DNA of 27,630 bases from a virus: UHGV virus genome UHGV-1949486. The stretch is one strand, 5' to 3'. Below are positions 3,818 to 25,491 of the stretch, in pieces. Each line of letters starts with the position of its first letter. Within the stretch, counting starts at the first letter, position 1. The notes below the pieces were generated by a model. It did not search any database and was not told the origin of the DNA. It saw only the letters and a list, made by a program, of their open reading frames with translations. Both the position numbers and the translations under genes were made by a program.

Positions 3818-3818
3818 G

Positions 3819-4157: not shown

Positions 4158-4166
4158 AACGCCTCC

Positions 4167-5120
4167 TTATTTACTGATACCGGTGATGAGATACCCGGCA
4201 TCGCCACCAACCACGGCGACTTTGTAGATATCGGTATAACGGCAGTACTTCACCTTGCCACCGGCTCCGTCGTATTTGTCAGCAACAGGCATCCCCTTAC
4301 GACGCAGGGTGTAGCCGAAGGACGGCTCGTTCTCGTCCGCGCTGTCCGCCCCGGGCTGCGGTTTGCCGACATAGTGCAGCATCAGGTTGTCTCCCCAGAT
4401 ATCCGCCGGCACGCTGTCCTTATCCATTGCCGCTTTCATGGACGGCAGGGAGACAGGCGCACCGATGACGATCTCTTCGATCTGAAAGAGGTCCTGCAGG
4501 ATTTCTGTGGTGATGCGCTTGCGTTCGTTGGCTCCGATGGCAGCCTGAAGTGCCGGATGGAACTTCAGCAGCGCCATCACGCCGGCACCCATGGTCATCA
4601 GGTTAGGACGCAGCCCCGTGGCCGTACGGACCGCTTCCATACCGGCTTCAATCACCCCGATGGGGTCCCCCTTACCACCGGCCCAGCGATCACTGGCTGT
4701 CAGTTTTTTAACGTGCCCGGTACGGTAGACCTTTTGATCCTGAGCCAGACGGGCGGCGATAAGTTCACGGCGCAGGTTCACGCCATTCGTGGCGCGACGG
4801 ATGGCCTTGCTCTCTTCGTTAAACATGGACTCCGCCTGTTCGCGGTAATCCACCGGTGCTGCCAGATCGTGTTCACCCAGCACCAGATCCAGTGTGCCGG
4901 TTTTCTCACGGACCAGAACATTGCTGTCCGCCCCGACGGCACGCTCAGTGTCATATTCCACAAAGGCGGTTTTCCCGAAGGTCGGCACACGCACGCCTTC
5001 CTTGTCCGTCAGCACGACGGGGAAAATACGTTCGCCAATGAATGCGGCATTTTTATAGCCTCGGGCGATACTGGTCAGTACCGGATCAACGACACGTTTA
5101 CCTTTTAAGTAATCAGACAT
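4167..5120 (-). CDS. Major capsid protein (Mu gpT-like major head subunit)
   Basis: 317 aa, downstream of the I-like gene and upstream of gp36/gp37-like genes, as in Mu. Confidence 0.7.
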   Translation of the reverse strand: MSDYLKGKRVVDPVLTSIARGYKNAAFIGERIFPVVLTDKEGVRVPTFGKTAFVEYDTERAVGADSNVLVREKTGTLDLVLGEHDLAAPVDYREQAESMFNEESKAIRRATNGVNLRRELIAARLAQDQKVYRTGHVKKLTASDRWAGGKGDPIGVIEAGMEAVRTATGLRPNLMTMGAGVMALLKFHPALQAAIGANERKRITTEILQDLFQIEEIVIGAPVSLPSMKAAMDKDSVPADIWGDNLMLHYVGKPQPGADSADENEPSFGYTLRRKGMPVADKYDGAGGKVKYCRYTDIYKVAVVGGDAGYLITGISK

Positions 5121-5134: not shown

Positions 5135-6250
5135 TTACAGGCAGCGTGCGACAGCAGCCTCATAGCTGATGCCTTCTTTTTTGGACAGGGCCACTGCTTT
5201 CTGATGCAGGGCCAGACGCTCAGGATCGGCTTCCGCAAACTCCGCCACATCCACCTTCACCGTGTCGCCGACACGCTCCTTTGTGGCCTGTTCGGCGAAA
5301 TTCATCACCGGCTCCCCGTCGGAGAGCAATGAACGGAAGGCGGTGGCCAGCGGCGTGCGGCTTTCCCCCTCAGCAAACTCCACCGGCTTGTCGCCACCGG
5401 CGACGGCATCCAGCAGGGCAACCACCACGGAGGAGGCGCGGGGAGCCAGACGCCCCTCTGCGACCAGTTTTTCTGCAAAGGCCACATTGTCCTTATGCAG
5501 TTGCTCCTGTCTGGCCTGTGCATCACGCGCATCGCGATCAGCAGCCTGCTGCTTCAGGCGGCGGTTCTCCTCCTGAAGGGCTTCAATCTCTTCTTTTGTC
5601 ATCGATGATTCCTCGTTACTTGCGGAAGACGGCACCTGGCCTGTCTCACTGAATTGTGCACCTGCTGCATCCTGCGACGGTGCGTCGCGGTACGCCTCTT
5701 CGCGCAGATTGTTGAGCTGCCATTCCGGCAGGACTTTTTCTGCTTCGTCCAGACTGAAGCGGGCGATCAGAAAATCGCGCAGCTTTCCCCACAGGGAGGC
5801 ATTCGTGATGGCCTGCCAGTCGGCGAACTCCACCACACCTTCTTCCTGCTCACTGAAGGACACCTGTTTCAGCCCCTTGACGGAAGGTGGCTGTGCCCCG
5901 AGAAAGCCCACATGGCGCAGGTAGAGCACGCCGGGCTTCGGATTGGACGGTGAATCCGGGAGGTAGAAAGAGGCGGACACTTTTTTGAATCGTCCGTTGG
6001 TGACCATCTCAGCAAACTGCGGGTCCAGCTGGGCAGGCTCTGCCATCAGATCGACGCCGCTGAGCGACAGGGCTTTCACCCAGCCCCACGCCGGGTCTTC
6101 CGTTCTGGGATGACCAATCACGAGTGGTGCTTCATGGACGGACGGGTCATAGGCTTTCACGCAGGCGGCAAGATCGTCTGGCGTGAACGGCAGTTTTTTG
6201 CCGTGCATATCGGTATGAGTACCGGCTTTAAAAATGTGAATGGCTGACAT
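5135..6250 (-). CDS. Head maturation protease / scaffold protein (Mu gpI-like)
   Basis: 371 aa; C-terminal charged coiled-coil-like segment (EEIEALQEENRRLKQQAADRDARDAQARQEQL) as in scaffold domains; Mu-order position between G and T. Confidence 0.6.
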   Translation of the reverse strand: MSAIHIFKAGTHTDMHGKKLPFTPDDLAACVKAYDPSVHEAPLVIGHPRTEDPAWGWVKALSLSGVDLMAEPAQLDPQFAEMVTNGRFKKVSASFYLPDSPSNPKPGVLYLRHVGFLGAQPPSVKGLKQVSFSEQEEGVVEFADWQAITNASLWGKLRDFLIARFSLDEAEKVLPEWQLNNLREEAYRDAPSQDAAGAQFSETGQVPSSASNEESSMTKEEIEALQEENRRLKQQAADRDARDAQARQEQLHKDNVAFAEKLVAEGRLAPRASSVVVALLDAVAGGDKPVEFAEGESRTPLATAFRSLLSDGEPVMNFAEQATKERVGDTVKVDVAEFAEADPERLALHQKAVALSKKEGISYEAAVARCL

Positions 6251-6464
6251 TTTGCTGTCCCGCGTTATGTTGTCGGAGACAGTTTGTGAGAAATGCAGGC
6301 CCGGCGATTTTAATCTGCTTTAGAAAACATCAGGGGAGAAGGACAGGGAAAGCAATGCGGTGAACCGGAAGCGGTTATAAAACAGAGGCTGTAAAGCCTT
6401 TATAAAGGTAATACAGCCCCTCATTCGCTGGCAATGATAAATCACCCGCCTGAAGAGAGAAAAC

Positions 6465-12976: not shown

Positions 12977-13098
12977 ATGAACCAGAAAGGTCCCGGCGCG
13001 GACTGACAGGCGTTCGGTTCTGATGAAGACCCGAAAGGCTTCGAAAGCCAGTTTCAGGGACATGCATACAATCCAGGTGATCTGCGGCCAGTTCATGA

Positions 13099-13449
13099 TT
13101 AAAGCCCCATCGCAACAGCCAGACAGACAGCTGCAACAATCAGTGCACGGCGGATTAACGCAGCAGAAAATACAAGGTGAAGGCCGGTCTGCACAGGGAA
13201 ACGCCCTTCAGCCATCAGCCTGTCTTCATGTTTCAGGTACTGACCGGGACGGGCTTTGGGGAAGAGCGAACGGTCAAGCCAGTACCCCAGCACTGCTGCC
13301 AGCGTGATGAGTGCCAGCTTGTAGATCACAACAGGCAACTGCTGTGGCGAGACCAGAGCGATGATGCCCAGCAACAGCACTGAGGTCAGCAGCCAGCCGC
13401 TGAGGCGAGGTTTTTTAACAGGGGGAATGAATTTTTTCAGGTTTTTCAT
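13099..13449 (-). CDS. Putative holin-like membrane protein (first gene of the late operon in this window)
   Basis: ATG at 13449 with AGGAGA Shine-Dalgarno 7 nt upstream (long ORF to 13482 trimmed); about 116 aa with two to three hydrophobic helices; immediately upstream of the endolysin. Confidence 0.5.
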   Translation of the reverse strand: MKNLKKFIPPVKKPRLSGWLLTSVLLLGIIALVSPQQLPVVIYKLALITLAAVLGYWLDRSLFPKARPGQYLKHEDRLMAEGRFPVQTGLHLVFSAALIRRALIVAAVCLAVAMGL

Positions 13450-13671
13450 GTGTGTCTCCTCGTTTGGTGGAGACAGCATCACAAATGTGGCGGGATACGG
13501 ATTTTAAACAGCGTTAATAGTGAAGATGTAAACGTGCACTGCATGATGGCTTTGAAAGAACGACCAGCCCGGTACCCGAACACCGGGCTGGCCATCGCCC
13601 CACAGGAATGCGCTGTGAGCCGACCAAGGTTCAGTCAGTCTCGCGAGACCAGACTAGCCTGCCATATTTTT

Positions 13672-13677
13672 TATAAT
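13672..13677 (+). promoter_or_regulatory. Candidate -10 element (TATAAT) upstream of the dam gene
   Basis: TATAAT hexamer 20 nt upstream of the dam ATG; no convincing -35 found. Confidence 0.3.
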
Positions 13678-13696
13678 TGTAAAAGGCTTACAGATT

Positions 13697-14467
13697 ATGA
13701 AAATGCAGACATTACCCATCGTTCCATGGATTGGTGGCAAACGCCGCCTTGCAAAACACATCCTGCCGCTGTTTCCGGCGCATGAATGTTATGTGGAGCC
13801 GTTTTGTGGGGCAGCAGCGCTCTATTTTCTTAAGGTACCCGGCAAGATCGAAGTCATTAATGATATCAACGGTGAGCTGGTGAACCTGTATCGGGTGGTA
13901 AAACATCATCTGGAAGAATTTGTACGCCAGTTCAAATGGGCGCTGGTCAGCCGGCAGATCTACAAATGGCTGCAGATCACCCCGGAAGAAACACTGACGG
14001 ATATCCAGCGTGCAGCACGGTTCTACTACCTTCAGAAGCAGGCGTTTGGGGGCAAGGTGGCGGAGCACAGCTTTGGTACCTCCACCATATCCCCGCCACG
14101 CTTCAACCTGCTGCGTATTGAAGAAGAACTGTCAGCGGCACACCTGCGGCTTTCCAGAACGGTCATAGAACACATGGACTGGCAACAGTGCATAGAACGA
14201 TATGATCGCCCGCATACGTTGTTCTACTGTGACCCTCCATACTGGGGAACGGAAGGTTATGGTGTGGAGTTCGGACTAGAAAATTATGATCATATGGCAG
14301 ATTTAGCACGCAGGATCAAAGGGAAGATGATTATATCGGTGAACGATATCCCGGAAATGCGGCAGGCATTCAACGGTCTAAATATTCAGTCGGTTGATAT
14401 CAGCTACAACCTCAAGATCACTGGCAAATCCAGTCGCAAGAAGGAACTCATTATCCTCAACTTTTGA
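13697..14467 (+). CDS. dam: DNA adenine methyltransferase (Dam-like, D12-class N6-adenine MTase), orphan
   Basis: 256 aa; FxGxG-type AdoMet motif (EPFCGAAALYF) and catalytic DPPY motif (FYCDPPYWGTEGYG); N-terminus WIGGKRRL typical of Dam; no adjacent restriction endonuclease gene. Confidence 0.85.
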   Translation: MKMQTLPIVPWIGGKRRLAKHILPLFPAHECYVEPFCGAAALYFLKVPGKIEVINDINGELVNLYRVVKHHLEEFVRQFKWALVSRQIYKWLQITPEETLTDIQRAARFYYLQKQAFGGKVAEHSFGTSTISPPRFNLLRIEEELSAAHLRLSRTVIEHMDWQQCIERYDRPHTLFYCDPPYWGTEGYGVEFGLENYDHMADLARRIKGKMIISVNDIPEMRQAFNGLNIQSVDISYNLKITGKSSRKKELIILNF

Positions 14468-15662
14468 CCGAATAGTAAGACTTCATGCAGTGAATCAAGT
14501 ACTGCATGAAGTCAAGGGCTGGTTTTGTGTACCAAAAATAAACAGTGATAGCGGTAATAATTCCCATAACTAGAACACCACGTATAATCCAGAACGTACG
14601 TTTCTGCGTGTCTAGTCGCGCAGAAATACTGCTAAATACACCAGCCACGTCATCTTTAATGAAGGAATATTCCTTATTAATCTGTTTTTCTTTGTATTCA
14701 ATTTCTTCGCCTAAGGCCTTTATAGATTGCATCTGGTTCGAAAGTGCCAGCCAGATTAACGTTGCAGCAAAAATGCATCCCAGAAGAATTATTGTGTTTG
14801 TTATCCCTTGGCCTGACCATTTCGTAGCCACTTTGAATTGGGTAGCTACGATAACAGAGGCAACAGGAATGCCAAGTATATGGTTCTGGATATCTGAAAA
14901 CGCTTTGTGGATTTTACCCATTTCTTCGACTTTTGCAGCACGCAGTTGATCCATTACTTTGTCATAAGAGAATCCAGAAGAGTAGATACGATACCCTTTC
15001 AGAAACTTTTCATGCAGACGCTGAATATTGTCCAGTAAATAAGCGAATACTAGAGGTGAATCAATTCCATCACTAACTGCTTGAATACTTTCAATCAGAA
15101 TATCTAGCTTCTGATCCTTATGGGTATCATCATTGAAACAAGCTATAAGGTTATCAAGATACTCCCTTTGCAAATTTTGTACATTTTCTGCAGCGAAGTG
15201 CGGTAATAGCTTGATAACTTCTTTTTTCAGAAAAACTAACTGACAAGTTGAGTTATCAAAGTAGGCCGCGGCCTCTTTTAGCAGGTTAACGAACTCGAGA
15301 ATCTTCCGGTAGTTGCTGATGAAAACGGGGATATCTTCATCATCATTACGAAATTTTGTTTCTAGGATGAAGTAATTAGCTGGCTCAAGGCACTGATGCT
15401 TTGGAGCATTTAGCAATTTTTCATGGGTGGAAAACACAAGTCCCAGTCCACTCCGTGGTGACGTCACACGTAGGATGATCGTGTTACCTGGAGCGATAGT
15501 GCCTGTATCAATAGAAAGACCATATTCACGAGGATCATCAAGCAAAGTATCAACCAGATCACAATCGGACTGATCTAAGAGCAACAGCGAACCGACACGA
15601 AACCCCTCTTGGAATTCCATACGACGATACAGAGCTGTCAGCATCTCAAATGAAATCGCCAC
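14457..15662 (-). CDS. Uncharacterised protein with two C-terminal transmembrane helices; downstream partner of the YejK/NdpA-like gene (candidate effector of a two-gene accessory system)
   Basis: 401-aa ORF starting 2 nt after the upstream gene stop; hydrophobic helices GITNTIILLGCIFAATLIWLALS and FWIIRGVLVMGIITAITVYFWY near the C-terminus; AT-rich codon usage unlike flanking phage genes; no family recognised by eye. Confidence 0.6.
   Translation of the reverse strand: MAISFEMLTALYRRMEFQEGFRVGSLLLLDQSDCDLVDTLLDDPREYGLSIDTGTIAPGNTIILRVTSPRSGLGLVFSTHEKLLNAPKHQCLEPANYFILETKFRNDDEDIPVFISNYRKILEFVNLLKEAAAYFDNSTCQLVFLKKEVIKLLPHFAAENVQNLQREYLDNLIACFNDDTHKDQKLDILIESIQAVSDGIDSPLVFAYLLDNIQRLHEKFLKGYRIYSSGFSYDKVMDQLRAAKVEEMGKIHKAFSDIQNHILGIPVASVIVATQFKVATKWSGQGITNTIILLGCIFAATLIWLALSNQMQSIKALGEEIEYKEKQINKEYSFIKDDVAGVFSSISARLDTQKRTFWIIRGVLVMGIITAITVYFWYTKPALDFMQYLIHCMKSYYSVKS
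14479..14513. terminator. Perfect 13-bp-stem hairpin (9-nt loop) at the convergence of dam and the 401-aa gene; candidate bidirectional terminator
   Basis: GACTTCATGCAGT gaatcaagt ACTGCATGAAGTC read directly; a T-rich tract (GGTTTTGTGT) lies 7 nt downstream on the plus strand; overlaps the last 18 codons of the minus-strand gene. Confidence 0.5.
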
Positions 15663-15664
15663 GA

Positions 15665-16672
15665 TTAAACCTCAGTCATCCACATTTCCCTAAATTCTTC
15701 AGGTACATTACGTAGGGTGATAATATTTGTTTCCGGATCATAATCAATATAGCCTTCAGTTTTCCCTTCCCGGTCAAACTTAAGTTCCCAATATTTAGAC
15801 TTGCCTTTAAAAGATACCAGAGCCCGAATGACTCGACCATCAGGAACGAAGCCATCCGATAACTCCAACTCTTCAGCAGCAAGTTTACCAGATAACTCCT
15901 CGGGAGCCTGGGGCCAAATGGCATTAACAAGGGTTTCAAGACTAAGTGGTTCACCAGCCTTACTTAGTGCATGTAAGTGTTCAAACGCACTCTTAAGAAA
16001 TGCATCTTTTTCAGCGCCGTCAAGTCCTTTCTCTGCCGCAAATGCTTTTAAAACGTCACGTAACTTTTCAGACTCTCGTTTGGCGATTAAGACATCATTA
16101 CAGCCTAGGAACTGTTTAAAATAGTTTGAAACATTACCTTGCCCCTTAAGAAAACTGATATAGCGCTCTGCGCCACTTTCCCACGCGGTTAAGTCAATGC
16201 GCCCAGCCATACGCAGCTTAGCAATATCAAGATAGGTACTATCTTGGATGTTAAAATCATCTGTGACAGTGGACCCAATGGTAGCGCTTACAATAGCTAT
16301 CAACAGGTGTTCATTGTGTCCTATCACGATATTTGCAAAAAGAACATAACCACCAGTAGCCATGTTTTCTCGCTGAGAACGTTCCGTCAGGTGATGCATC
16401 ATTCGGCAGGAACTTTGGTAGAAATCATCAACACCTTCGAGAAAGTCCCCAGCCATTCGTTCCATAGGATAGTTATCCGTATCGCCTTCAAAATAGCCAT
16501 AACCTTTACCTGTGCGTCCTGCATATTTTGCACAAATATCGTTTATAAGGCGCTGAGAGGCTTCAGTAACTAGACCTTCTTCAGGACTCAATCTCTCAGA
16601 AGCGTCTCCATTTTGTTGTTTGTCTAAAATGTGAACTACAACGTGTTTAACTTCAATGGTCTGCTCAGACAT
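15665..16672 (-). CDS. YejK/NdpA-family nucleoid-associated-protein homolog (phage-borne)
   Basis: 335 aa, same length as E. coli YejK; recognisable family blocks (HVVVHILDK, GGYVLFA, HLLIAIV, RIDLTAWESGAERYISFLKGQG) matching YejK as recalled from memory; strong AGGTGG Shine-Dalgarno 7 nt upstream of the ATG at 16672; AT-rich. Confidence 0.7.
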   Translation of the reverse strand: MSEQTIEVKHVVVHILDKQQNGDASERLSPEEGLVTEASQRLINDICAKYAGRTGKGYGYFEGDTDNYPMERMAGDFLEGVDDFYQSSCRMMHHLTERSQRENMATGGYVLFANIVIGHNEHLLIAIVSATIGSTVTDDFNIQDSTYLDIAKLRMAGRIDLTAWESGAERYISFLKGQGNVSNYFKQFLGCNDVLIAKRESEKLRDVLKAFAAEKGLDGAEKDAFLKSAFEHLHALSKAGEPLSLETLVNAIWPQAPEELSGKLAAEELELSDGFVPDGRVIRALVSFKGKSKYWELKFDREGKTEGYIDYDPETNIITLRNVPEEFREMWMTEV

Positions 16673-16742
16673 TGGCTATCCACCTTATTTTTTATTGCTT
16701 AATGGCAAATAATTTCTGCTATATGTTCTCGTTAGGAACACA

Positions 16743-17150
16743 TTAACCCACATTTTTTAACCGCTCAATCGTTGCGGATAATTCCTTCAGTTGTTTTTCC
16801 ATCTCAATCACACGCTGTTTTTCTTCAGCGCCTCGCATGAGATCTCGCCGAACCTCAGGATCTAACTGGTTTAGAAGTTCAAGCATTTTAAGGTCTGACG
16901 GGCTGAATTGATGTTGTGTTGGTACAGCAACAATTTCTTTAGATGGAATATGTTCTTTACCGGTAAGTAGCCAATCGATTGATACACCCAAATGGGTACT
17001 TAGCGCAACAAGAGCCTCTGCGTTTGGTTCTCTCTCTCCACGCAAATAGTTTTGAAGTGAGCGATATGGAATTTTTGATAAGTCAGATAATGCCTTTATT
17101 GTCATGCCATTAGCATCCATCACTTCACGCAATCTCTCTTTTGTACTCAT
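16743..17150 (-). CDS. Prophage repressor, XRE-family helix-turn-helix (c/CI-like)
   Basis: HTH segment (MTIKALSDLSKIPYRSLQNYLRGEREPNAEALVALSTHLGVSIDWLL); divergent from the early operon; start placed at the internal ATG 17150 (MSTKERL...) because the longer ORF to 17246 would run through the early promoter. Confidence 0.7.
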   Translation of the reverse strand: MSTKERLREVMDANGMTIKALSDLSKIPYRSLQNYLRGEREPNAEALVALSTHLGVSIDWLLTGKEHIPSKEIVAVPTQHQFSPSDLKMLELLNQLDPEVRRDLMRGAEEKQRVIEMEKQLKELSATIERLKNVG

Positions 17151-17166
17151 TTGAACATATCTCAAT

Positions 17167-17194
17167 TTGACACACTCATTTGGGTGTGTACAAT
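17167..17194 (+). promoter_or_regulatory. Early promoter (Pe-like): TTGACA, 16-nt spacer, TACAAT, with an operator-like dyad ACACAC/GTGTGT in the spacer
   Basis: Hexamers read directly at 17167-17172 and 17189-17194; inverted repeat 17170-17175 / 17184-17189; sits between the divergent repressor and ner-like genes. Confidence 0.55.
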
Positions 17195-17238
17195 AGACCC
17201 AATAGAGTACATCATAACCTAACAGGAACACGGTGCAT

Positions 17239-17463
17239 ATGAACAAACAACAAGTTCGGGCACGGCTGGTTGAACGAGGCAGTAGCTTGCGCCAGTTCGC
17301 GCTTAACGCGGGCTATGAACCACGAACAGTCACCCAGGCAGTCAGTCGCTGGGCTGGTAAAAGTGAACTACCTCGCGGTCGTTTGACTTATCGGATTTTG
17401 CGAGATCTATCGGTTGCAATAGGTAAAGAAGTTACCCCCGGTATCCTTAAGGAGGCGTCATGA
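17239..17463 (+). CDS. ner: Ner-like DNA-binding protein (Mu Ner / Nlp family)
   Basis: Similarity to Mu Ner core (SLRQFALNAGYEPRTVTQAVSRW); first early gene; ATG at 17239 preferred over GTG at 17233 on AGGA spacing. Confidence 0.7.
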   Translation: MNKQQVRARLVERGSSLRQFALNAGYEPRTVTQAVSRWAGKSELPRGRLTYRILRDLSVAIGKEVTPGILKEAS

Positions 17464-17768
17464 ATAAACCAAATACATCAAGCTCAGGTATCCGTATTTT
17501 GCGCGTTCTTAAGGCCTTACGTGGCCACGCTTTGAACGGTGTTTCTAACGGGGAACTAGCGGTTGCACTGCACGAATCACCGGCAAACATCAACCGGGCA
17601 CTTAACACGCTCATTGAAGAAGGGTTGGCTCTGAAACTAGAAAACGGGCGTTTCGCACCAGGCATCCAGTTGCTGCAGATCGCCATGGCCCACAGTAACG
17701 AGATGGCACGTGCACAGGATCGCATTAACGAAATCAACCAACGTGTTATTTCAGGTAGTCGTTTGTAA
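17460..17768 (+). CDS. Putative winged-helix DNA-binding protein (hypothetical early protein)
   Basis: 102 aa; AAGGAGG Shine-Dalgarno; ATGA overlap with ner stop; HTH-like segment NGVSNGELAVALHESPANINRALNTLIEEGL. Confidence 0.5.
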   Translation: MNKPNTSSSGIRILRVLKALRGHALNGVSNGELAVALHESPANINRALNTLIEEGLALKLENGRFAPGIQLLQIAMAHSNEMARAQDRINEINQRVISGSRL

Positions 17769-17778
17769 GGAGTAATCA

Positions 17779-18690
17779 ATGGGACGCACCAAATCACCGG
17801 TTAGCACTGAACTGAACGTCGAGGTACCGCTGTCGGATGATCTCAATGTCAGTCTAAACGCCATGACACAGCATCGCATGGAAATCATGCAACAGTTCGG
17901 CGATGGTCTGCCTTATGAGCGCGATCGTGTTGTCCATGAGGCACGCTTTTATATGGCACAGAGCGCTGAGGCCATGCTGGAGGCAGGTAAGCGGCTGATA
18001 ATCCTTAAGGAAAATGAACCACACGGGGAGTTTATAAAGATTCTTGAAAGTGAGTTGGGGCTGGCATACCGGACATCTGTGAGAATGATGCAAGCATCGA
18101 CAAAATACTTATCCCCGGCGCTGAAACCAAATGTGCCAACGTTGGCACATTTGGGAAAAGCCAAACTTTTCGAATTAATGACAGAAGACGACGAAGAGCT
18201 TGCCGAACTGGCCGACGGCGGCACAGTTGCCGGCCTGACGCTTGACGACGTTGATCGCATGTCAGTACGCGAACTTCGCCAGGCCCTGCGCGAAGCGCGC
18301 GAAACCAACGCAGCACAACAGCGCGTACTCGCCGATAAAAATGAAAAAATTGATTCTCTCTCTACCAGACTGGAAAAGAAATCCCGTATTCAGCTGCCTG
18401 AGCCTGATGAGGAGGTTAAGAAGCTGCGGGCGGAAGTGACAGCATTAGCGGTTGAGGCGGAATCTGCCATCGCCGTTCGACTGTCCAGCGCTTTTGAGAC
18501 ACTGTGCGCATATTGTGCTGAAAACATGATTGATACCCCCAGAGACTTCATGGCAGGCCTGGTCTGTCAACTGGAAAGCACAGCGCGTAGCCTGCGCTCC
18601 ACATTTGACCTGCCGGACGAGCCAACAGGCGATGTCGCGCCTTCATGGCTGACTGAGCCGACGCCACAGATTAACGGGCTGGAGGCATAA
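17779..18690 (+). CDS. Hypothetical early protein (303 aa)
   Basis: AAGGAG Shine-Dalgarno; acidic and coiled-coil-rich; no catalytic motif recognised. Confidence 0.5.
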   Translation: MGRTKSPVSTELNVEVPLSDDLNVSLNAMTQHRMEIMQQFGDGLPYERDRVVHEARFYMAQSAEAMLEAGKRLIILKENEPHGEFIKILESELGLAYRTSVRMMQASTKYLSPALKPNVPTLAHLGKAKLFELMTEDDEELAELADGGTVAGLTLDDVDRMSVRELRQALREARETNAAQQRVLADKNEKIDSLSTRLEKKSRIQLPEPDEEVKKLRAEVTALAVEAESAIAVRLSSAFETLCAYCAENMIDTPRDFMAGLVCQLESTARSLRSTFDLPDEPTGDVAPSWLTEPTPQINGLEA

Positions 18691-18693
18691 CCA

Positions 18694-20463
18694 ATGAATG
18701 CTGCCCTGACTGAACGACTGGTTTATGTCGCCCGCGCGGCACGTGACGCGGGGCATGGTAAACGCGGTGCAATATACGACGCTGCCTGTGCTGAACTTGG
18801 CATGTCCCGCGCCACTCTGCTGCGCAGGCTGAAGGAGGTCTCTGTGACTGATAAACGCAAAAAACGCGCCGATGCCGGGCGCAGCGCCCTGACCCGCGAC
18901 GAAGCCGCGCTGATATCTGCCACACTGCGTGAGGCCACCCGCAAGAACGGTAAGCGTCTCTATTCCATCGCAGATGCAGTGGAAACCCTGCGGGCTAACG
19001 GCTTTATCTCCGCAGGCAGAACAGATGAAACCACCGGTGAGTTTTTCCCGTTGTCCGAAGATGCCATCAGCCGTGCCCTGCGTAACTATGGCCTGCACCC
19101 GGAACAACTGGATGCCCCTGCGCCGCATACCGAAGTGGCCAGTCTGCATCCCAATCACGTCTGGCAGATTGATGCCTCGCTCTGCACGCTTTACTACCTG
19201 AGCAATGGACACAAAGGGCTGCAGGTGATGGACAGCGCGAAATTCTACAAGAACAAGCCCGCTAACCTTGCCCGTATCGCCAGTGACCGCGTGTGGAGTT
19301 ATGAGATTACCGACCATGCCAGCGGCTGGATTTACGTTGAGTATGTGACGGGTGCGGAATCCGGTGAGAACCTGTGTTCTGTGCTTATCAACGCCATGCA
19401 GGAGCGTGGCGGCGCAGACGTGCTGCACGGCGTGCCAAAAATACTCTATCTCGACCCCGGCTCGGCAAACACCGCGGGTATGACGAAAAACATGTGCCGC
19501 TCACTGGGCATTGACCTGATAGCGCACAAGCCGCATAACGCCCGCGCCACCGGACAGGTGGAAAAGGCGCGGGACATTATCGAACGCAAGCTGGAGCCGG
19601 GTCTGAAGTTCCGGCCGGTTCACAGTCTGGAAGAACTCAACGCGCTGGCCGCGAAATGGCGCAGCCACTTTAACGCCACGGCTGTTCACAGCCGCCACGG
19701 TAAAACCCGCACGGATATCTGGCTGAAGATTACTGCTGAGCAGCTGAAAAAAGCGCCTTCCGTTGAGGTATGTCGTGAACTGGCTGTGGCGGCACCAGAA
19801 CTCCGCAAAGTCACGCCAAAACTTCGTGTCTCGTTCCGGGGCACTGAATTTGACGTATCAACGGTACCGGGCGTACTGGTTGGTGAAAAACTGATGATTA
19901 CCCGTAACCCATGGCGCAGCGATGTGGCACAGGTGGTTCTGACCGGTGAGGACGGCCACGAGACGTTCTTCCTGGTCGAAGAGGTCAGAAAGAACGAGTT
20001 TGGCTTTGCTGAAGGCGCGGCGGTATTTGGCGAAAGTTACAAAGCCCTGCCGGAAACCCCGGCACAGATGGCGGCAAAAGAAACTGAAGCGCTGGTTACC
20101 GGTACAGACAACGCCGCAGATGCAGCCGCCGCACGCAAGGCGAAGGCGCTGCCGTTCGGCGGGCGGGCTGACCCGCATAAACATAACCACGAAACACTGC
20201 TGCCGGCCTATATGCCGAAGCGTGGTCAGGCCTCTGACGTACGCGGGCCGCGCACTGAACAACGTCCCATGACTCATGTGGAGGCCGCGAAAGCCCTGCG
20301 CGATAAGTTCAGCGCCGACGGCCTTACCTGGACGCCGGAACATTACCGCCAGTTAACGGCACAGTACCCGGACGGCGTACCGGAAGCCGCACTGGATGAA
20401 GTCATGGCCACGCTGACCACACCGGCCAGCAGCAGTGTTATCAGCATAGTTAACGGCAACTGA
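18694..20463 (+). CDS. DDE transposase (Mu A-like / retroviral-integrase-fold catalytic core)
   Basis: 589 aa; candidate catalytic triad blocks HVWQIDAS, ILYLDPGSANT and ATGQVEKARD in the order and spacing of Mu A D-D-E residues; followed by an ATPase gene. Confidence 0.85.
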   Translation: MNAALTERLVYVARAARDAGHGKRGAIYDAACAELGMSRATLLRRLKEVSVTDKRKKRADAGRSALTRDEAALISATLREATRKNGKRLYSIADAVETLRANGFISAGRTDETTGEFFPLSEDAISRALRNYGLHPEQLDAPAPHTEVASLHPNHVWQIDASLCTLYYLSNGHKGLQVMDSAKFYKNKPANLARIASDRVWSYEITDHASGWIYVEYVTGAESGENLCSVLINAMQERGGADVLHGVPKILYLDPGSANTAGMTKNMCRSLGIDLIAHKPHNARATGQVEKARDIIERKLEPGLKFRPVHSLEELNALAAKWRSHFNATAVHSRHGKTRTDIWLKITAEQLKKAPSVEVCRELAVAAPELRKVTPKLRVSFRGTEFDVSTVPGVLVGEKLMITRNPWRSDVAQVVLTGEDGHETFFLVEEVRKNEFGFAEGAAVFGESYKALPETPAQMAAKETEALVTGTDNAADAAAARKAKALPFGGRADPHKHNHETLLPAYMPKRGQASDVRGPRTEQRPMTHVEAAKALRDKFSADGLTWTPEHYRQLTAQYPDGVPEAALDEVMATLTTPASSSVISIVNGN

Positions 20464-20473
20464 GGAGGGAAAC

Positions 20474-21640
20474 ATGCTGGTACTGAAGCAGCAACTGAAA
20501 GAGGCCCGTATTCCACAGGCGGTGGTGGCGAGAGCTGTCGATGTTTCTGAGGCCACGCTGGCCCAGATTGTGAATCATAACGCGTGGCCCCGCACCAGCC
20601 CCGGAGAAGTGCGCCGGCGTCTTGCGTCCTGGCTGGAAAGTCAGGGGATTGATACAACGAAGAGTTTTGATGCTGTACAGGGCGCGGCCACGCCCCGTAC
20701 AGCGGGTACCACAGATAAAACGAGCCTCAGTGAGGAAGAGAATATGTTACTCAAAAAACAGGTGTTATTTCCAGCAACCAAAAAAGCGTTTGGTCTTTTC
20801 CGTGACCCGTTCGCCGACGAAGCCATGCAGGGTTCTGATGATGTGTTCACCACCCCGGATATTCGCTACGTGCGTGAGGCGTTGTACCAGACAGCCCGTC
20901 ATGGTGGGTTTATGGCCGTCATCGGTGAGTCCGGTGCGGGTAAATCCACGCTGCGCCGCGACCTGACTGAACGTATCAACCGCGAGAATGCGCCGGTAAT
21001 TGTTATCGAGCCATACATCATCGCTATGGAAGACAACGATGTGAAAGGGAAAACCCTGAAGGCAGCAGCGATTGCCGAAGCCATTATCAGTACCATCGCA
21101 CCACTGGAAAGCATCAGACGCAGTCAGGACGCCCGCTTTCGCCAGTTGCATCGCGTCCTGAAAGACAGCAGCCAGGCGGGGTTCAGCCACGTTCTGGTGA
21201 TTGAGGAGGCCCACAGTCTGCCCATTCCGACACTGAAACACCTCAAACGCTTTTTTGAGCTGGAGTCCGGTTTCAAAAAACTGCTGTCCATCGTGCTGAT
21301 TGGCCAGCCGGAACTGGCGACAAAACTGTCTGAACGCAATATGGAAGTCCGTGAAGTCGTTCAGCGCTGTGAGGTGGTCGAACTTCTGCCTCTGGACAAT
21401 AACCTTGAAGAGTTTCTGACGTTCAAACTGCAACGGGCCGGTAAACAACTGACGGACATTATGGACGCCAGCGCAGTGGATGCCATACGTGCCCGCCTGA
21501 GCAATCCGGGAAGTCATCGTAAAAATATGGTCAGCCTGCTGTATCCGCTGGCCGTCAGTAACCTGGTAATAGCCGCCATGAATCTGGCCGCTGAAATCGG
21601 GGTTCCACAGGTCAACGCTGACGTTGTCAAAGGGGTTTAA
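20474..21640 (+). CDS. Transposition ATPase (Mu B / TniB-like AAA+ protein)
   Basis: 388 aa; Walker A GESGAGKST and Walker B-like HVLVIEEAHSL; N-terminal HTH-like segment; immediately downstream of the transposase. Confidence 0.8.
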   Translation: MLVLKQQLKEARIPQAVVARAVDVSEATLAQIVNHNAWPRTSPGEVRRRLASWLESQGIDTTKSFDAVQGAATPRTAGTTDKTSLSEEENMLLKKQVLFPATKKAFGLFRDPFADEAMQGSDDVFTTPDIRYVREALYQTARHGGFMAVIGESGAGKSTLRRDLTERINRENAPVIVIEPYIIAMEDNDVKGKTLKAAAIAEAIISTIAPLESIRRSQDARFRQLHRVLKDSSQAGFSHVLVIEEAHSLPIPTLKHLKRFFELESGFKKLLSIVLIGQPELATKLSERNMEVREVVQRCEVVELLPLDNNLEEFLTFKLQRAGKQLTDIMDASAVDAIRARLSNPGSHRKNMVSLLYPLAVSNLVIAAMNLAAEIGVPQVNADVVKGV

Positions 21641-21642
21641 TA

Positions 21643-21912
21643 ATGAAATCCACCACAGGTATCAACCAGCAAATCAGCAAAGTGCAGTCAGCCATTATGG
21701 CGCTTAAGGCGACGAACACGGATGTACAAAGCATCACCATCAGGGGTAACAAACCTGTCATCCGCGTTTCCCGGAGTGCGCATTGCATGCGCATGCTTGA
21801 GCAGGGAAAGGCCTGTTATCTGTATACCGGTCATGACCACAGGGGACATTTCCGTCAGGGCGTTTTCGAACTGCACGGCTGTCGCGTCGTGTGGCCGGAA
21901 TCTTTGTGGTAA
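21643..21912 (+). CDS. Hypothetical early protein (89 aa)
   Basis: ORF starting 3 nt after the ATPase gene stop; no motif recognised. Confidence 0.4.
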   Translation: MKSTTGINQQISKVQSAIMALKATNTDVQSITIRGNKPVIRVSRSAHCMRMLEQGKACYLYTGHDHRGHFRQGVFELHGCRVVWPESLW

Positions 21913-21939
21913 TCAGCACAACAGGAGGAGTCATAAAAT

Positions 21940-22470
21940 ATGGCAAAAAGTACAAAAGGGGCAAAACGTATCAAAGCCGCAGCAGCACTCTGGGTGCCGG
22001 GGACACGCGAAGAGGTCATTGAGGGAATCAGACTGCTTGGTGACGCGCAACGTGAACTGGTCAGGGCTGAAACAGAAATGAATGACACCATTGGCGACAT
22101 CACTGCACGTTATGCCCCGCTCACCGAGAGCCTGAAAAAACGCATGGCCGAACTGCAGTCCGGTATCCAGACATGGTGTGAGGCGCACCGTGATGAACTG
22201 ACCGGCAACGGGAAGGTGAAGTTCGCTAACCTCACCACCGGCGAGGTGCAGTGGCGAAACCGTCCGCCGTCAGTCAGCATTCGCGGGGCGGATAATGTTA
22301 TTGAATTACTGAGACGTCTGGGGCTTGAGCGCTTTATTCGTGTAAAGGAGGAAATAAATAAAGATGCCATTCTGAATGAAAAAGAGGCTGTGAAAAATAT
22401 TCCCGGTATTACCATAAAAAGTGATATTGAGGATTTTTCAATAATTCCTTTTGAGCAGGATGTGCAGTAA
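21940..22470 (+). CDS. gam: Gam-like host-nuclease inhibitor (Mu Gam family, DNA-end binding)
   Basis: 176 aa; strong similarity to Mu Gam as recalled (KRIKAAAA..., ETEMNDTI, WCEAHRDELT, VKFANLTTGEVQWRNRPPSVSIRG, FIRVKEEINKDAIL, GITIKSDIEDFSIIPFEQ); AGGAGG Shine-Dalgarno. Confidence 0.85.
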   Translation: MAKSTKGAKRIKAAAALWVPGTREEVIEGIRLLGDAQRELVRAETEMNDTIGDITARYAPLTESLKKRMAELQSGIQTWCEAHRDELTGNGKVKFANLTTGEVQWRNRPPSVSIRGADNVIELLRRLGLERFIRVKEEINKDAILNEKEAVKNIPGITIKSDIEDFSIIPFEQDVQ

Positions 22471-22567
22471 ACACACCACGTTAATTATTTAATAAAAACA
22501 TTTTCTTTTTTATTCCGGCGTCAGCGCCGCGGGCTTCTGCACGCCGGAAACAGAGGAGAATTAAATT

Positions 22568-22762
22568 ATGATATTTAAATGTATTCAGTGCGAGAGGGAT
22601 ATAACAGCCCTGCGTTTTCACAGCGCCATCGCCGTGATGTCCGGTAAGTATCACATACCTGCAGTACGTGTCACCCTGGTCTGCCCGTACTGCAGCCAGC
22701 ATTTTTCGGCGGACGTGCCCGTCATAGAATTCTCCCGCCCTGACAGGGAGGACGCGCAATGA
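22568..22762 (+). CDS. Small putative zinc-ribbon protein (two CxxC pairs)
   Basis: 64 aa; KCIQC and VCPYC motifs; GAGGAG Shine-Dalgarno. Confidence 0.45.
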   Translation: MIFKCIQCERDITALRFHSAIAVMSGKYHIPAVRVTLVCPYCSQHFSADVPVIEFSRPDREDAQ

Positions 22763-23031
22763 TTACCCCACAGGAAGCACGACAGCGCACCCGAACTCTT
22801 GTTGAACACTATGTCAACGAGTGTGAATGCCGCGACCTCACCGATGTGAAGCACGTCCTGACGGCGCTAATCAGCATGGCCACACAGGCCATTGTGGCGA
22901 CCAACGGAAAGGAGGCTGCCCTGCAGGTACTGATGAACACACTCACCCACACGGCAGAGCATGAGGTGCCGTACCGGATGGAAACCACTGCAGAAGGCGG
23001 CCTGCACATCACCGTCAGCCGGAAGCACTGA
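22759..23031 (+). CDS. Hypothetical early protein (90 aa)
   Basis: GGGAGG Shine-Dalgarno; 4-bp overlap with the upstream gene. Confidence 0.45.
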   Translation: MITPQEARQRTRTLVEHYVNECECRDLTDVKHVLTALISMATQAIVATNGKEAALQVLMNTLTHTAEHEVPYRMETTAEGGLHITVSRKH

Positions 23032-23040
23032 GGGCGCGGC

Positions 23041-23337
23041 ATGACACGAAACACCGAACTCACCCGCACCGCCCTCTACCGTCTGGCCCTGCAGCGTTTC
23101 GGGCCGGACGCACAGGCCCTGAAACTGACAGAAGAGGCCGCTGAACTGGCGGCCAGTGCTGCCCGCAATCTGAACGGACAGGGCAGCGAAAGTGACCTCG
23201 CGGCAGAGCTGGCAGACGTGGAAATCATGACAGAGCAACTGCGCCTTCAGGGGATGGACCGGCTGATTGACTTCCACAAACAGAAAAAACTGGAACGTCT
23301 GGCTGCACGACTGGGCGTGATTTACACGAACGAGTAA
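23041..23337 (+). CDS. Putative MazG-like nucleotide pyrophosphohydrolase domain protein
   Basis: 98 aa; paired acidic helices with EEAAELA and ELADVEIM motifs characteristic of the small MazG/NTP-PPase fold (assignment by motif only). Confidence 0.45.
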   Translation: MTRNTELTRTALYRLALQRFGPDAQALKLTEEAAELAASAARNLNGQGSESDLAAELADVEIMTEQLRLQGMDRLIDFHKQKKLERLAARLGVIYTNE

Positions 23338-23351
23338 CCGGGAGGCATTCA

Positions 23352-23567
23352 ATGGCTGACATACTCAGGGAAATCACCGCATGGACACTGATTCTTACTG
23401 GCCTGGCGACATGCCTCAGTGCGGGGGCAGCCCTGGCTGCCCTGCTGATGCACATAACAACACAGTGGTTATGGGAAAAGCTTAAAGCAGCATACAGCCT
23501 GAAAGAGCTGTCCGACGCTGTCCGGGCATGGAAACGGCAGAAAAATACCGGAGATACAGAACAATGA
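23352..23567 (+). CDS. Small hypothetical membrane protein
   Basis: 71 aa with one hydrophobic helix (AWTLILTGLATCLSAGAALAALLM); GGGAGG Shine-Dalgarno. Confidence 0.4.
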   Translation: MADILREITAWTLILTGLATCLSAGAALAALLMHITTQWLWEKLKAAYSLKELSDAVRAWKRQKNTGDTEQ

Positions 23568-24247
23568 CAGACCAGAATAAACACATTGAGAAACTGAAAA
23601 AGTTGCTGGCGCTGGCCGCATCCGGCAACCCGCACGAGGCCGCTCTGGCACTGCGCCGAGCCCGTAAACTGATGGATGTTCACGGCATCACACATTCCGA
23701 CATTGCTATGAGTGATATTGATGAAACCATCAGTCATTACTGGCCGACAGGCAGTCTCCGTCCACCGCGCTACATGCTGGGCCTGATGAACATCATCCGC
23801 GAGGCATTTGGTGTTAACTCCATCATTCACCCCGGCACGCATCCGTCTGTGGGGTTCTACGGTAACCGGGAACGAGCGGCACTGGCTGCGTACACCTGGG
23901 AAGTGCTGGTCCGCCAGCTGAAAAAGGCGCGTCAGCAGTATATCAGCGCACAGAACAAAAGAATAAAAAACGCCACCCGTACCAGCCGTGGAGACCAGTT
24001 TGCTGAAGGCTGGGTACTGGCCGTTATCAGTGAAATACAGTCCTTTGCCCTGACCGATGATGAGCGTGAACTGATGCAACAGTGGCTGGAACATAAATAC
24101 CCGCAGACGCAAACCACCAGGGCGCGTAAACCGGGAAGAAGCCGCAATGGCGACGCCTCGCGCTATGCGGGGTTTCGTGAAGGGCAGAACGTCAGACTGC
24201 ACCGCCCGGTCAGTGGGCAGGAACAACAGAAACTGGAGGCCAGATGA
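23564..24247 (+). CDS. Hypothetical protein with DUF2786-like N-terminal domain
   Basis: Start placed at ATG 23564 (GGAGA Shine-Dalgarno 11 nt upstream) rather than the ORF-track start 23528; N-terminus IEKLKKLLALAASGNPHEAALALRRARKLMDVHGI is the characteristic DUF2786 pattern. Confidence 0.5.
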   Translation: MTDQNKHIEKLKKLLALAASGNPHEAALALRRARKLMDVHGITHSDIAMSDIDETISHYWPTGSLRPPRYMLGLMNIIREAFGVNSIIHPGTHPSVGFYGNRERAALAAYTWEVLVRQLKKARQQYISAQNKRIKNATRTSRGDQFAEGWVLAVISEIQSFALTDDERELMQQWLEHKYPQTQTTRARKPGRSRNGDASRYAGFREGQNVRLHRPVSGQEQQKLEAR

Positions 24248-24474
24248 TTACGCTATCAGGTAACAGCCGGAAATTAAAAGCCTGCCGAATATCTGCCAGA
24301 TACCTTTTTGCCCGCGCCTTTTTTAAGAACGTCAGGCCGGGGATCACAATTGGTGTTATTGCCGGACGCGAACAGGTTGAAAAATACATGTCAGGTGCAT
24401 GGTGGAATAACGACCCTGTCATTGCTGCCCGTAATATTCATATCGAATGGGGAGGTATTCAGAATGACTACTGA
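24244..24474 (+). CDS. Hypothetical early protein (76 aa)
   Basis: GGAGG Shine-Dalgarno; ATGA overlap with the upstream gene. Confidence 0.4.
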   Translation: MITLSGNSRKLKACRISARYLFARAFFKNVRPGITIGVIAGREQVEKYMSGAWWNNDPVIAARNIHIEWGGIQNDY

Positions 24475-24670: not shown

Positions 24671-24671
24671 T

Positions 24672-25121
24672 ATGCAGAAAAAACGCCTGATACAGCTTAT
24701 CCATATTGCCCGTAATGAACTGGGTATGGATGAAGACACCTACCGCCAGATGTTACAGGGGCTGACCGGTAAAGCCTCAACCAAAGGAATGGATACCACA
24801 CAACTAAACTGCGTGCTGGAATCCATGAAAAAGAAAGGCTTTCGCGTTAAACCAGCCAGAAAAGCCAGCTCCGGTTTACCGCTGGATAACCATCCGCAGT
24901 CCAGGAAAATTCGTGCGCTATGGCTTGAAATGGCTGCTGCCGGCATTGTTCGTGACCGTTCAGAAAATGCATTAGCGCGGTGGATCAAGCGGGAAACGGG
25001 CATCAGCGCCCTGCGCTGGCTCAATACTGAACAGGCAAGCAGTGTTATTGAGAAACTGAAGAAGTGGCAGCACAGAGCTGCGGGAGTAAAACATGAGCGA
25101 CCTGAATCAGTTTCGAAGTAA
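24672..25121 (+). CDS. gemA: GemA-like regulatory protein (Mu gp16 / DUF1018 family)
   Basis: 149 aa; N-terminal LIQLIHIARNELGMDEDTYRQMLQGLTGKAS...KKGF pattern typical of Mu GemA; located just upstream of mor as in Mu. Confidence 0.7.
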   Translation: MQKKRLIQLIHIARNELGMDEDTYRQMLQGLTGKASTKGMDTTQLNCVLESMKKKGFRVKPARKASSGLPLDNHPQSRKIRALWLEMAAAGIVRDRSENALARWIKRETGISALRWLNTEQASSVIEKLKKWQHRAAGVKHERPESVSK

Positions 25122-25491
25122 AGGGCCGGAACTCCTGGTGGAGCTGGCACAGCATACCTCTGAGACCGTTCGCGAGATTATTGATATTGAGCCCGCAATT
25201 GCCGACCAGATTGGTCAGGCCGTCGCGAACCGAATGATGCAGGTCTGGGGCGGGCAAAACGTTTATTTCCCGATGGGCATGGTATGGAAGGTCAGTCAGC
25301 GCGACCGGGAAATCTTCAGGGAGTTTAACGGACGCAACCACCACGAACTGGCCCGCAAGTTTGGTGTTTCGCTTCAGTGGGTCTACAGCGTGGTTAAGCG
25401 GGTCAGAAAAGAAGAACTGGATCGGATGCAGGGCAGGTTGTTTGATGAAGATCTGCCAGAGGAGACGAAAGACGTTAACAAATCCAGATAA
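25093..25491 (+). CDS. mor: Mor/C-family transcriptional activator (Mu Mor-like)
   Basis: 132 aa; C-terminal blocks GGQNVYFP and FREFNGRNHHELARKFGVSLQWVYSVVKRVR match the Mor/C family HTH region; last gene of the early operon. Confidence 0.8.
   Translation: MSDLNQFRSKGPELLVELAQHTSETVREIIDIEPAIADQIGQAVANRMMQVWGGQNVYFPMGMVWKVSQRDREIFREFNGRNHHELARKFGVSLQWVYSVVKRVRKEELDRMQGRLFDEDLPEETKDVNKSR

Follow-up and report, generated by a model that had tools for sequence, protein, structure and literature searches.

The DNA analysed here is a stretch of 27,630 nucleotides (nt) from UHGV virus genome UHGV-1949486, called the window in the following. It holds a BcepMu-like (Bcepmuvirus) transposable prophage, which carries at 13697..14467 on the plus strand the open reading frame (ORF) of an orphan DNA methyltransferase of the D12/alpha class with a length of 256 amino acids (aa). 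Directly upstream lies a structured 5′ leader RNA of ∼143 nt (13554..13696, plus strand), extending from a predicted transcriptional start site to the start codon, and this leader is in turn preceded by a predicted promoter of the late type. The gene is a real but ordinary, already annotated prophage DNA methyltransferase, and the main interest of the locus is the leader RNA and the late-type promoter rather than the methylase gene itself. The late genes of the prophage occupy the minus strand and reach up to the holin gene (start at 13449), the early genes run on the plus strand from ∼17239, and the host gene rstB is found past ∼26.6 kb. Positions 13000-17300 are 100% identical to the chromosome of Escherichia coli M-17 and of several other strains. 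As an earlier note on this DNA had described, the methylase is a solo gene on the plus strand, divergent from the holin/late operon and convergent with two minus-strand genes that encode a 401-aa protein and a protein of the NA37 family.

The same note had proposed a D12-class methyltransferase, to be confirmed by a domain search, and this assignment was borne out. Pfam family PF02086 (D12 class) matches residues 11-234 of the 256 aa (E=7.3e-28, 98.4 bits against a cutoff of 22), and the REBASE-derived type II methylase profile MTase_II of PADLOC gives E=3.7e-115. RefSeq/PGAP annotates a “DNA adenine methylase” (WP_000783856.1) at identical coordinates in E. coli M-17. The relatives in the PDB are DpnM (5e-17), M.CbeI (6.3e-15; second-best, over the full length), and EcoDam (1e-14). 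Two motifs had been named for the protein, one of which is present as described: motif IV is DPPY, within FYCDPPYWG, and aligns to the DPPY of EcoDam, DpnM, and M.CbeI. The other, FxGxG, has to be corrected. Motif I reads FCGAA (EPFCGAAALYF), that is, FxGxA, the EcoDam counterpart being F-V-G-A-G; its final glycine is replaced by alanine in the enterobacterial members, and FAGGA is found in some family members. The order of the motifs is alpha, and the methylated position is probably the N6 of adenine. Phages of gamma- and betaproteobacteria, cyanobacteria, and others encode homologues with 65-92% identity at the protein level, in which the segments for catalysis and recognition hardly vary. 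In Serratia sp. L9 (L050, 10001-10764), a disrupted methylase ORF lies downstream of an intact leader (140 bits).

Homologues of the methylase gene with at least 80% DNA identity are present in 535 of 5,426 complete E. coli genomes. Throughout the Enterobacterales, the homologues occupy the same slot between the holin gene and the early region, which is kept in E. coli, Klebsiella phage KP12, Mixta, Erwinia, Photorhabdus, Xenorhabdus, Serratia, and others. The methylase gene has a fixed position in BcepMu-like prophages and is also part of a mobile “leader + methylase” cassette of many temperate phages. The prophage edge (∼26400-27630) adjoins rstB in the window and ycaL in E. coli EC958, and three to four places in E. 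coli M-17 match the window region near rstB. Both the differing flanks and the multiple matching places in M-17 are consistent with Mu-like transposition into varied sites.

The leader RNA was analysed in two alignments. The first, called the close alignment here, comprises the 170 nt that precede the start codon in 26 BcepMu-like Enterobacterales prophages of many genera. The second, the wider alignment, consists of 48 wider hits aligned to a covariance model of three helices (H1-H3), from which the long-range helix covering the ribosome-binding site (RBS) had been left out. In the close alignment, the leader is composed of conserved blocks between stems with compensatory substitutions. The folding z-score of the window leader is –4.65. 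The structure rests on covariation. In the close alignment, 93% of the cells are paired and 14 pairs are changed on both sides, which none of 500 shuffles reached (slid controls 27-45%). The wider alignment contains 26-27 pairs changed on both sides at a covariation score of 0.41-0.49 vs 0.16 after shuffling, again reached by 0 of 500 shuffles.

Three hairpins follow each other on the plus strand. Helix H1 (13562..13593) is a perfect 10-bp inverted repeat, GACCAGCCCGGT / ACCGGGCTGGCC, and shows changes on both sides at 11 of 11 pairs in the wider alignment, where 89.7% of it is paired. Helix H2 (13601..13617), formed by CACAG and CUGUG, is invariant in close relatives; across the wider set, all five pairs covary and 95.7% are paired, with alignment columns 90 and 134 being A-U in 28 and G-C in 17 sequences. 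Helix H3 (13627..13660) carries a palindromic apex, GTCTCGCGAGAC (13638-13649), which is replaced by GTTCTCGAGAAC or GTCATCGATGAC in relatives, and shows compensatory changes in three sub-helices. A further closing helix suggested by the fold of the single sequence, AUGGC/GCCAU, was discarded, as it is not conserved by inspection of the close alignment.

In addition to the three hairpins, RNAalifold predicted a long-range helix between CUGUGAGCC (13613..13621, plus strand), which consists of the 3′ arm of H2 plus four bases, and GGCUUACAG (13685..13693, plus strand), which overlaps the Shine-Dalgarno sequence AAGG (13683-13686) and ends 3 nt before the ATG. This helix is 97% paired in the close and 84.7% paired in the wider alignment, the latter with four pairs changed on both sides. 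A duplex test found the 9-mer pairing directly before the start codon in ∼30 of 47 sequences, including the compensatory variants CUGCAAGUC:GGCUUGCAG, GUGAGC:GCUCAC, and CACGGUUUC:GAGAUCGUG. Since the 3′ arm of H2 is used in both pairings, H2 excludes the RBS-covering helix, and column 134 (U/C) covaries with column 90 in H2 (A/G) as well as with column 305 in the RBS strand (A/G). Two mutually exclusive helices are hence under selection, and the leader can therefore be regarded as an RNA switch. Its conservation with compensatory changes likewise indicates that selection is ongoing.

The covariance model of H1-H3 recovered ∼45 further beta- and gammaproteobacterial loci in unrelated phage contexts, with the element on the methylase strand and abutting its start. 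It also matches upstream of the methylase homologues of phi1026b (48 bits) and VP882 (59 bits), and in phage B3 (27 bits, E ∼1.5e-3) upstream of com, ending at the com start. The core sequence pattern is present in 77 viral contigs from IMG/VR, and in 75 of these the start of a methylase homologue (38-100% identical) follows on the same strand after 40-100 nt. Altogether, leader and methylase family occur together in more than 120 loci, including B3, phi1026b, and VP882. Several loci have a gap of 125-170 nt between the end of the element and the methylase, wide enough for a com gene like that of B3. Rfam 15, whose families include the known SAM/SAH riboswitches and phage leaders, gave no match at E≤10 on 13440-13760 and no match at gathering score in nine other leader-bearing loci. 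The leader RNA is thus apparently a conserved element that has not been described.

Two relatives, L007 (3692-3865) and L163 (4787-4958), contain a second, slightly degenerate leader copy (148-165 bits) ∼630 nt upstream of the functional one, in which the Shine-Dalgarno GG is mutated (AAAATGTTTACAG) and which is followed by what appear to be the first methylase codons. This copy is probably a recombination scar. Six Paraburkholderia loci, which are without a clear RBS-covering helix, show a different perfect dyad, AAAGT-N-ACTTT, ∼30 nt upstream of H1 and then a TTGACC-like sequence; the leader-methylase cassette may be plugged into the regulatory circuit of each phage.

Upstream of the leader, a dyad with the sequence TAAACAGCGTTAA (13505..13517) is common to the divergent promoters of the holin operon and the methylase leader and is presumably a binding site for the activator Mor. 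Its pattern, TAAASNNNRTTAA (TAAAS-N3-RTTAA), is matched three times in the window vs 0.08 expected. The two other copies are located at 6310-6322, 66 nt upstream of the ATG of an ORF annotated as hypothetical (5135-6250), and at 394-406, 63 nt upstream of the tail-assembly operon, so that all three copies are intergenic and each precedes the first start codon of a late operon by 60-66 nt. For the leader/methylase promoter we predict a –10 element CATGAT (13542..13547, plus strand) without a typical –35 and a start at about G13554; CATCCT or CATCAT hexamers stand at equal distance from the dyad in KP12 and in relatives of the type found in E. coli sequence type 131 (ST131). For the lysis/late operon, the predicted element is an extended –10, TGtGATGCT (13475..13483, minus strand), with a start at ∼13468. 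The dyad centre at 13511 is 43 bp away from each of the two predicted start sites.

The presumed activator of the dyad-bearing late promoters is encoded at 25093..25491 on the plus strand (PF08765, 1.1e-43; “Mor transcription activator family protein” in PGAP). In phage Mu, a pair of inverted repeats of 5 bp, centred at –43.5, is bound by a dimer of Mor, and Pmom and the other late promoters have –10 hexamers and no –35 (PMC4390567, PMC2582627). Because the window dyad resembles the Mu Mor site in its geometry, we infer that the methylase may belong to a Mor-dependent late regulon, with Mor presumably binding at the dyad. Relatives in which holin and methylase genes are 1.4 kb apart have two dyad copies, one beside each gene. 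Three ORFs of 243, 134, and 71 aa lie between holin and leader in ST131-type prophages (L004, 2858-4340) and are missing from the window, whose single dyad is flanked on the left as in the holin-side copy and on the right as in the leader-side copy. It looks as if recombination between two dyad copies had deleted the intervening DNA in the window.

Based on these features, we propose the following mechanism. Transcription from about G13554 would depend on an activator-controlled promoter with a weak –10 (CATGAT), no –35, and the dyad ∼43 bp upstream, so that a Mor-family activator would switch on the methylase alongside the late genes, as C does for mom in Mu. In the transcript, pairing of CUGUGAGCC with CACAG would form H2 and leave the RBS free, and pairing of CUGUGAGCC with GGCUUACAG would cover the Shine-Dalgarno region and block the RBS. 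The switch might be triggered by the methylase itself through autoregulation, by the kinetics of co-transcriptional folding or RNase III processing, or by a small ligand of the S-adenosylmethionine/S-adenosylhomocysteine (SAM/SAH) type. The potentially harmful methylase would be kept silent in the lysogen, and after replication the enzyme would modify phage DNA before packaging, protecting it from restriction in the next host. Self-protection of phage DNA is the most plausible role. We assign a probability of about 60% to this explanation as a whole, an orphan D12 methylase under a late Mor-type promoter and a leader switch that serves modification of phage DNA. A bolder version is possible but rather doubtful: the leader would represent a new class of regulatory RNA for phage orphan methyltransferases and would genuinely sense a signal, whether as a riboswitch that responds to SAM, SAH, or another metabolite or as an autoregulatory site to which the methylase binds, and shift between H2 and the RBS helix; the H3 apex would have a second function, and the methylase family would have a non-GATC, possibly relaxed, specificity missed by surveys of lysogen methylomes.

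A number of observations weigh against the proposed late promoter and leader switch. At the promoter, the start site, the –10 element, and Mor binding are all predictions, a promoter scan of 13450-13696 returned no plus-strand promoter, no common σ70 promoter precedes the leader across its contexts, and the dyad statistic is partly circular because the pattern came from the sites that were then counted. The phi1026b homologue is transcribed in lysogen culture at 21,563 reads per kilobase per million vs 1,000-4,700 for structural genes (PMC2920897), and strictly late expression is therefore not universal. For the leader, alignment to the H1-H3 model inflates the pairing of these helices in the wider alignment, G-U pairs on the plus strand exceed A-C mismatches by only 58 to 32 in the close alignment, and the minus strand folds about equally well (z = –4.76). 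The strand was assigned mainly because of the RBS helix and the constant orientation relative to the methylase, and its assignment as the sense strand is not absolute; a Paraburkholderia subgroup is without a clear RBS-covering helix. Finally, among 45 distinct sequences, 36 have at the apex of H3 a perfect palindrome without a spacer that spans at least 8 nt, whereas a self-complementary apex is expected for 1 in 16 tetraloop hairpins; a simple RNA hairpin does not explain this. Its centre varies even between close relatives (TCGA, CGCG, CCGG, GTAC, GATC, and others). Candidate explanations are a dimeric RNA duplex or RNase III site, a dyad acting at the DNA level, or quasi-palindrome correction.

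The palindromic apex and the fold of the minus strand would both be accommodated if the element acted as DNA, via operators or dyads for a dimeric regulator or as a cruciform, or as an antisense RNA, the RBS helix then being incidental. Such a role is also suggested by the terminator-like U-rich tract that follows H1 on the minus strand and by a weak promoter-like site at 13703-13676 on the same strand. The hexamers of this site, however, are not conserved in relatives, and H1, H2, and the lower part of H3 covary with G-U pairs, bulges, and non-palindromic loops. Moreover, one column covaries with two partners ∼90 nt apart, one of them at the RBS, which a DNA operator would not do, and the orientation and spacing relative to the start codon of methylase or com are always the same. 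The palindrome itself follows neither the repressor nor the recognition region of the methylase. We consider a function as DNA or antisense RNA unlikely and retain the sense-strand RNA switch.

Several specific roles for parts of the leader were considered and rejected. GTCTCGCGAGAC might serve as an activator or operator site at –41 of a promoter with TATAAT at 13672-13677, but this hexamer is not conserved in relatives and the palindrome occurs only once in the window; the operator reading is also contradicted by compensatory changes of the palindrome together with the flanking stems, which hold G-U pairs. A target of the methylase is not a suitable explanation either, the recognition region of the enzyme being near-invariant and the palindromes different. 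As an immunity operator the palindrome fails in relatives L007 and L008, which share the same repressor and Ner proteins and have different palindromes. Also dismissed was the idea that H1 terminates transcription on the minus strand and so protects the late operon from read-through out of the repressor gene; this role is secondary at best because H1 belongs to the motif in every phage context.

Information on expression in lysogens is available for relatives. M.EcoMIV (EC958_1101) of E. coli ST131 is transcribed significantly below dam at mid-log phase in LB, had no motif assigned in the lysogen methylome, and the recognition site is known for no homologue of more than 65% identity (PMC4659465). 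The ST131 protein WP_000783854.1 (EC958 1031787-1032551), 88% identical to the window methylase in aa sequence, is very probably M.EcoMIV according to position and description rather than a sequence match. A Salmonella strain with a BcepMu-like prophage likewise shows only its standard five motifs in the methylome (PMC3868858). Since a late-type promoter and an RBS-blocking leader would keep the gene off, lysogens would lack the methylation, an explanation that is testable: the modification should show in DNA after induction or in virion DNA. The low transcription and the lack of a motif in lysogens, together with the disrupted copy in Serratia sp. L9, could also be those of a decaying or functionless prophage remnant, silent under all conditions. 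Given the intact ORF in the window, 65-92% protein identity across diverse phages with near-invariant catalytic and recognition segments, and a regulatory RNA kept by compensatory changes, which implies ongoing selection, a remnant is highly improbable.

The earlier note had further assumed a Dam enzyme acting on GATC. A true Dam-type methylase could top up or replace host Dam, regulate phage promoters in the lysogen or during growth, or guard against GATC-cutting enzymes, and some results agree with it: the methylase scores barely above the cutoff of the broad dam subfamily TIGR00571 (116.9 vs 114.85 bits), GATC enzymes (DpnM, EcoDam, and, by family, T4 Dam) are among its best relatives in the PDB, and a GATC enzyme masked by host Dam would also leave no extra motif in lysogen methylomes. 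The equivalog model for E. coli Dam, NF008152, is nevertheless missed by far (69.2 bits vs a cutoff of 441). In the EcoDam-DNA structure of Horton and coworkers from 2006, K9 and R124 reportedly read both G:C pairs of GATC. According to the HMMER alignment, these positions are occupied by Pro10 and Ala122 in the methylase, and the family consensus at both is conserved and unlike Dam; F117 keeps the aromatic character of Y119, the intercalating residue of EcoDam. The PDB search also placed the methylase as close to M.CbeI as to Dam. M.CbeI is an alpha-class N4-cytosine methyltransferase carrying DPPY (PMC8616854), and D12 class and DPPY alone therefore do not fix the target base.

The segment from motif I to motif IV is almost invariant between family members from E. 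coli, Pseudomonas, Vibrio, and Burkholderia phages, and the family therefore probably has one common specificity. Homologues with 65% identity occur in phages of Pseudomonas and Burkholderia, hosts that are not known to have Dam and in which GATC regulation would be without a context. The prophage contains 77 GATC sites vs 102-120 expected (observed/expected 0.64-0.76), which is unexpected for a phage guarding its own GATC sites, although the count suggested as a check in the earlier note is weak evidence either way because the depletion is only mild. The early region (17233-26400) is depleted about twofold (15 vs 29-35 expected), and seven sites fall within the 771-bp methylase gene. The regulatory region between holin and methylase is free of GATC, the first site being at 13846 inside the methylase gene, which speaks against the suggested regulation of phage promoters by GATC methylation. 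With low lysogen transcription as a further point against it, a Dam-type GATC enzyme appears improbable. On these sequence comparisons, we regard the methylase as distinct from Dam orthologues and canonical GATC as an unlikely target.

The minus-strand genes downstream of the methylase form a cargo pair directly downstream of a phage repressor of the HTH_3/CI type (16743..17150, minus strand; domain match and PGAP) and on the same strand as the latter (14457-16742). This resembles the arrangement of cI-rexA-rexB in phage lambda. Cargo gene 1 (14457..15662) encodes the 401-aa membrane protein with a KwaA-like transmembrane C-terminus (KwaA 8e-5) and has no Pfam match; cargo gene 2 (15665..16672) encodes a nucleoid-associated protein of the YejK/NA37 family (PF04245, 1e-80). 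Both score far below the equivalog cutoffs of the two-gene anti-phage system DS-1, with 75.9 vs 315 bits for DS1_2 (NF053869, 3e-21) and 63.7 vs 330 bits for DS1_1 (NF053868, 1.4e-17), and would accordingly be only distant homologues of it. The pair is also found in prophages of Mixta tenebrionis (94% and 97% identical) and Brenneria (82% and 92%).

A type II restriction-modification pairing does not apply to the methylase, which is an orphan. In agreement with the earlier claim that no endonuclease is adjacent, searches with Pfam, NCBIfam, and PADLOC-type profiles revealed no nuclease or restriction domain in its neighbours, so that no cognate restriction gene emerged, and the cargo varies or is missing in relatives. 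In relatives, the early genes are ∼0.8 to 4 kb away from the methylase, with between none and 4 kb of cargo, always on the repressor strand and downstream of the repressor; in ST131-type prophages, the repressor is directly convergent with the methylase. In eleven relatives, the hotspot that separates the stop codons of methylase and repressor holds minus-strand cargo, for example genes for lipoproteins of 139-312 aa, for small membrane proteins, or for a pair of 297 and 153 aa. Homology between relatives ends ∼34 nt before the methylase stop, the cargo junction being inside the 3′ end of the methylase gene, and the pair is therefore an insertion.

The methylase could still be the protective half of a restriction-modification-like or defence module that marks self DNA for the 401-aa/YejK-like pair. 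The genes are adjacent and convergent, the methylase ORF and the 401-aa ORF (stop at 14457) overlap by 11 bp (14457-14467), a hairpin is common to both, and the YejK domain is validated in the defence system DS-1 (PMC13092281), to which the pair is distantly related. Since the methylase slot stays constant with the YejK-like pair, with other genes, or with nothing, as in ST131-type prophages, EC5654, KP12, Photorhabdus, and others, the methylase is not a partner of its neighbours. It also travels with the leader RNA into unrelated phages that are without the pair, and the pair, an insertion by the homology break, contains no nuclease domain. A joint module therefore has very little to recommend it compared with an orphan methylase. 

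The hairpin at the convergent gene ends (14479-14491 / 14501-14513, 9-nt loop) is a perfect 13-bp inverted repeat, as had been noted before, with folding energies of –22.1 kcal/mol on the plus and –20.2 kcal/mol on the minus strand. It is not located in a shared intergenic spacer, but within the last ∼20 codons of the 401-aa minus-strand ORF. It recurs in Mixta and Brenneria loci with the same cargo, with one compensatory T-A to A-T change in Brenneria, is absent from relatives with other or no cargo, and was not called by a consensus terminator scan. By this distribution, the hairpin is part of the cargo module.

Of the complete E. coli genomes, ∼10% carry a member of this prophage “DNA adenine methylase” family, the pandemic ST131 clone among them, and the family also occurs in phages of Burkholderia pseudomallei, Pseudomonas, and Vibrio. 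Its members are routinely labelled Dam and are apparently silent in methylome studies, and D12 class and DPPY are no evidence of GATC specificity. With strong covariation, more than 120 instances, and its absence from Rfam, the leader is a clean candidate for a new class of cis-regulatory RNA. The slot downstream of the repressor and beside the methylase is a swappable cargo site, filled here with the distant DS-1 YejK-type relative.

Compared with known systems, the methylase shares Pfam family, fold class, DPPY, and the alpha motif order with E. coli Dam, T4 Dam, and DpnM; the similarity is remote (E ∼1e-14 to 5e-17), and the recognition hairpin reads FGGKVAEHSFGTSTISPPRF in the window methylase vs YNGLCRYNLRGEFNVPFGRY. 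The D12-methyl RNA motif, which Weinberg and colleagues reportedly described in 2017 as a candidate cis-regulatory RNA upstream of D12-class methyltransferase genes in phage-like sequences, is said to be known only from metagenomes. The window leader, in contrast, is common in E. coli and other cultured bacteria and matches no family of Rfam 15. M.CbeI (PDB 7M6B) has DPPY and a recognition-loop region closer to the window methylase than that of Dam, but methylates the N4 of cytosine (PMC8616854), is only remotely identical, and originates from a thermophilic Firmicute.

M.EcoMIV of prophage Phi2 in E. coli ST131 is likewise a D12-class orphan and occupies the same slot of a BcepMu-like prophage. 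This prophage differs by the three extra ORFs between holin and methylase, by the lack of cargo between methylase and repressor, and by a different methylase C-terminus; the literature on M.EcoMIV says nothing about a leader (PMC4659465). Hia5, Hin1523, and Nma1821 of FluMu-type prophages are also orphan adenine methylases, which replace Mom, stand beside com-like genes, and are inactive during normal growth of the lysogen (PMC3299994). They probably belong to a different subfamily, judging from B3 ORF48, a close relative of the window methylase, which is outside the 1000 proteins most similar to Hia5 by PSI-BLAST (PMC3299994).

The proposed regulation has its nearest counterparts in transposable phages. 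In the com-mom system of Mu, a DNA-modification gene is silent until late, as we propose here by analogy, and its promoter depends on an activator and is without a –35, Pmom being one of four late promoters of Mu (PMC2582627). An RNA structure at the start site limits translation in Mu (PMC3299994), and the helix CUGUGAGCC:GGCUUACAG, which overlaps the Shine-Dalgarno sequence in the window, might act similarly. In contrast to Mom, which has an acyltransferase fold, the window enzyme is a Rossmann-fold D12 methylase; its leader, ∼140 nt long, contains three hairpins and an alternative pairing of its own, and the gene is located between the late and early operons rather than at the genome end. 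Neither Pfam (PF10122) nor tblastn with B3 Com and Mu Com, the latter an approximate query, detected Com in the window. A 64-aa ORF in the early/middle region (22568-22762, plus strand), annotated as hypothetical and without a PF10122 match, encodes a CxxC-x30-CxxC zinc ribbon. The 71-aa ORF upstream of the methylase in ST131-type relatives was rejected as a Com-like regulator, since it contains no cysteines. In the Mu-like transposable phage B3, a genuine com gene, ORF47 (PF10122, 4e-22), stands between leader and methylase in a cassette inside the tail operon, unlike in the window, and its DNA adenine methylase ORF48 is 66% identical to the window methylase and preceded by a leader of the same family.

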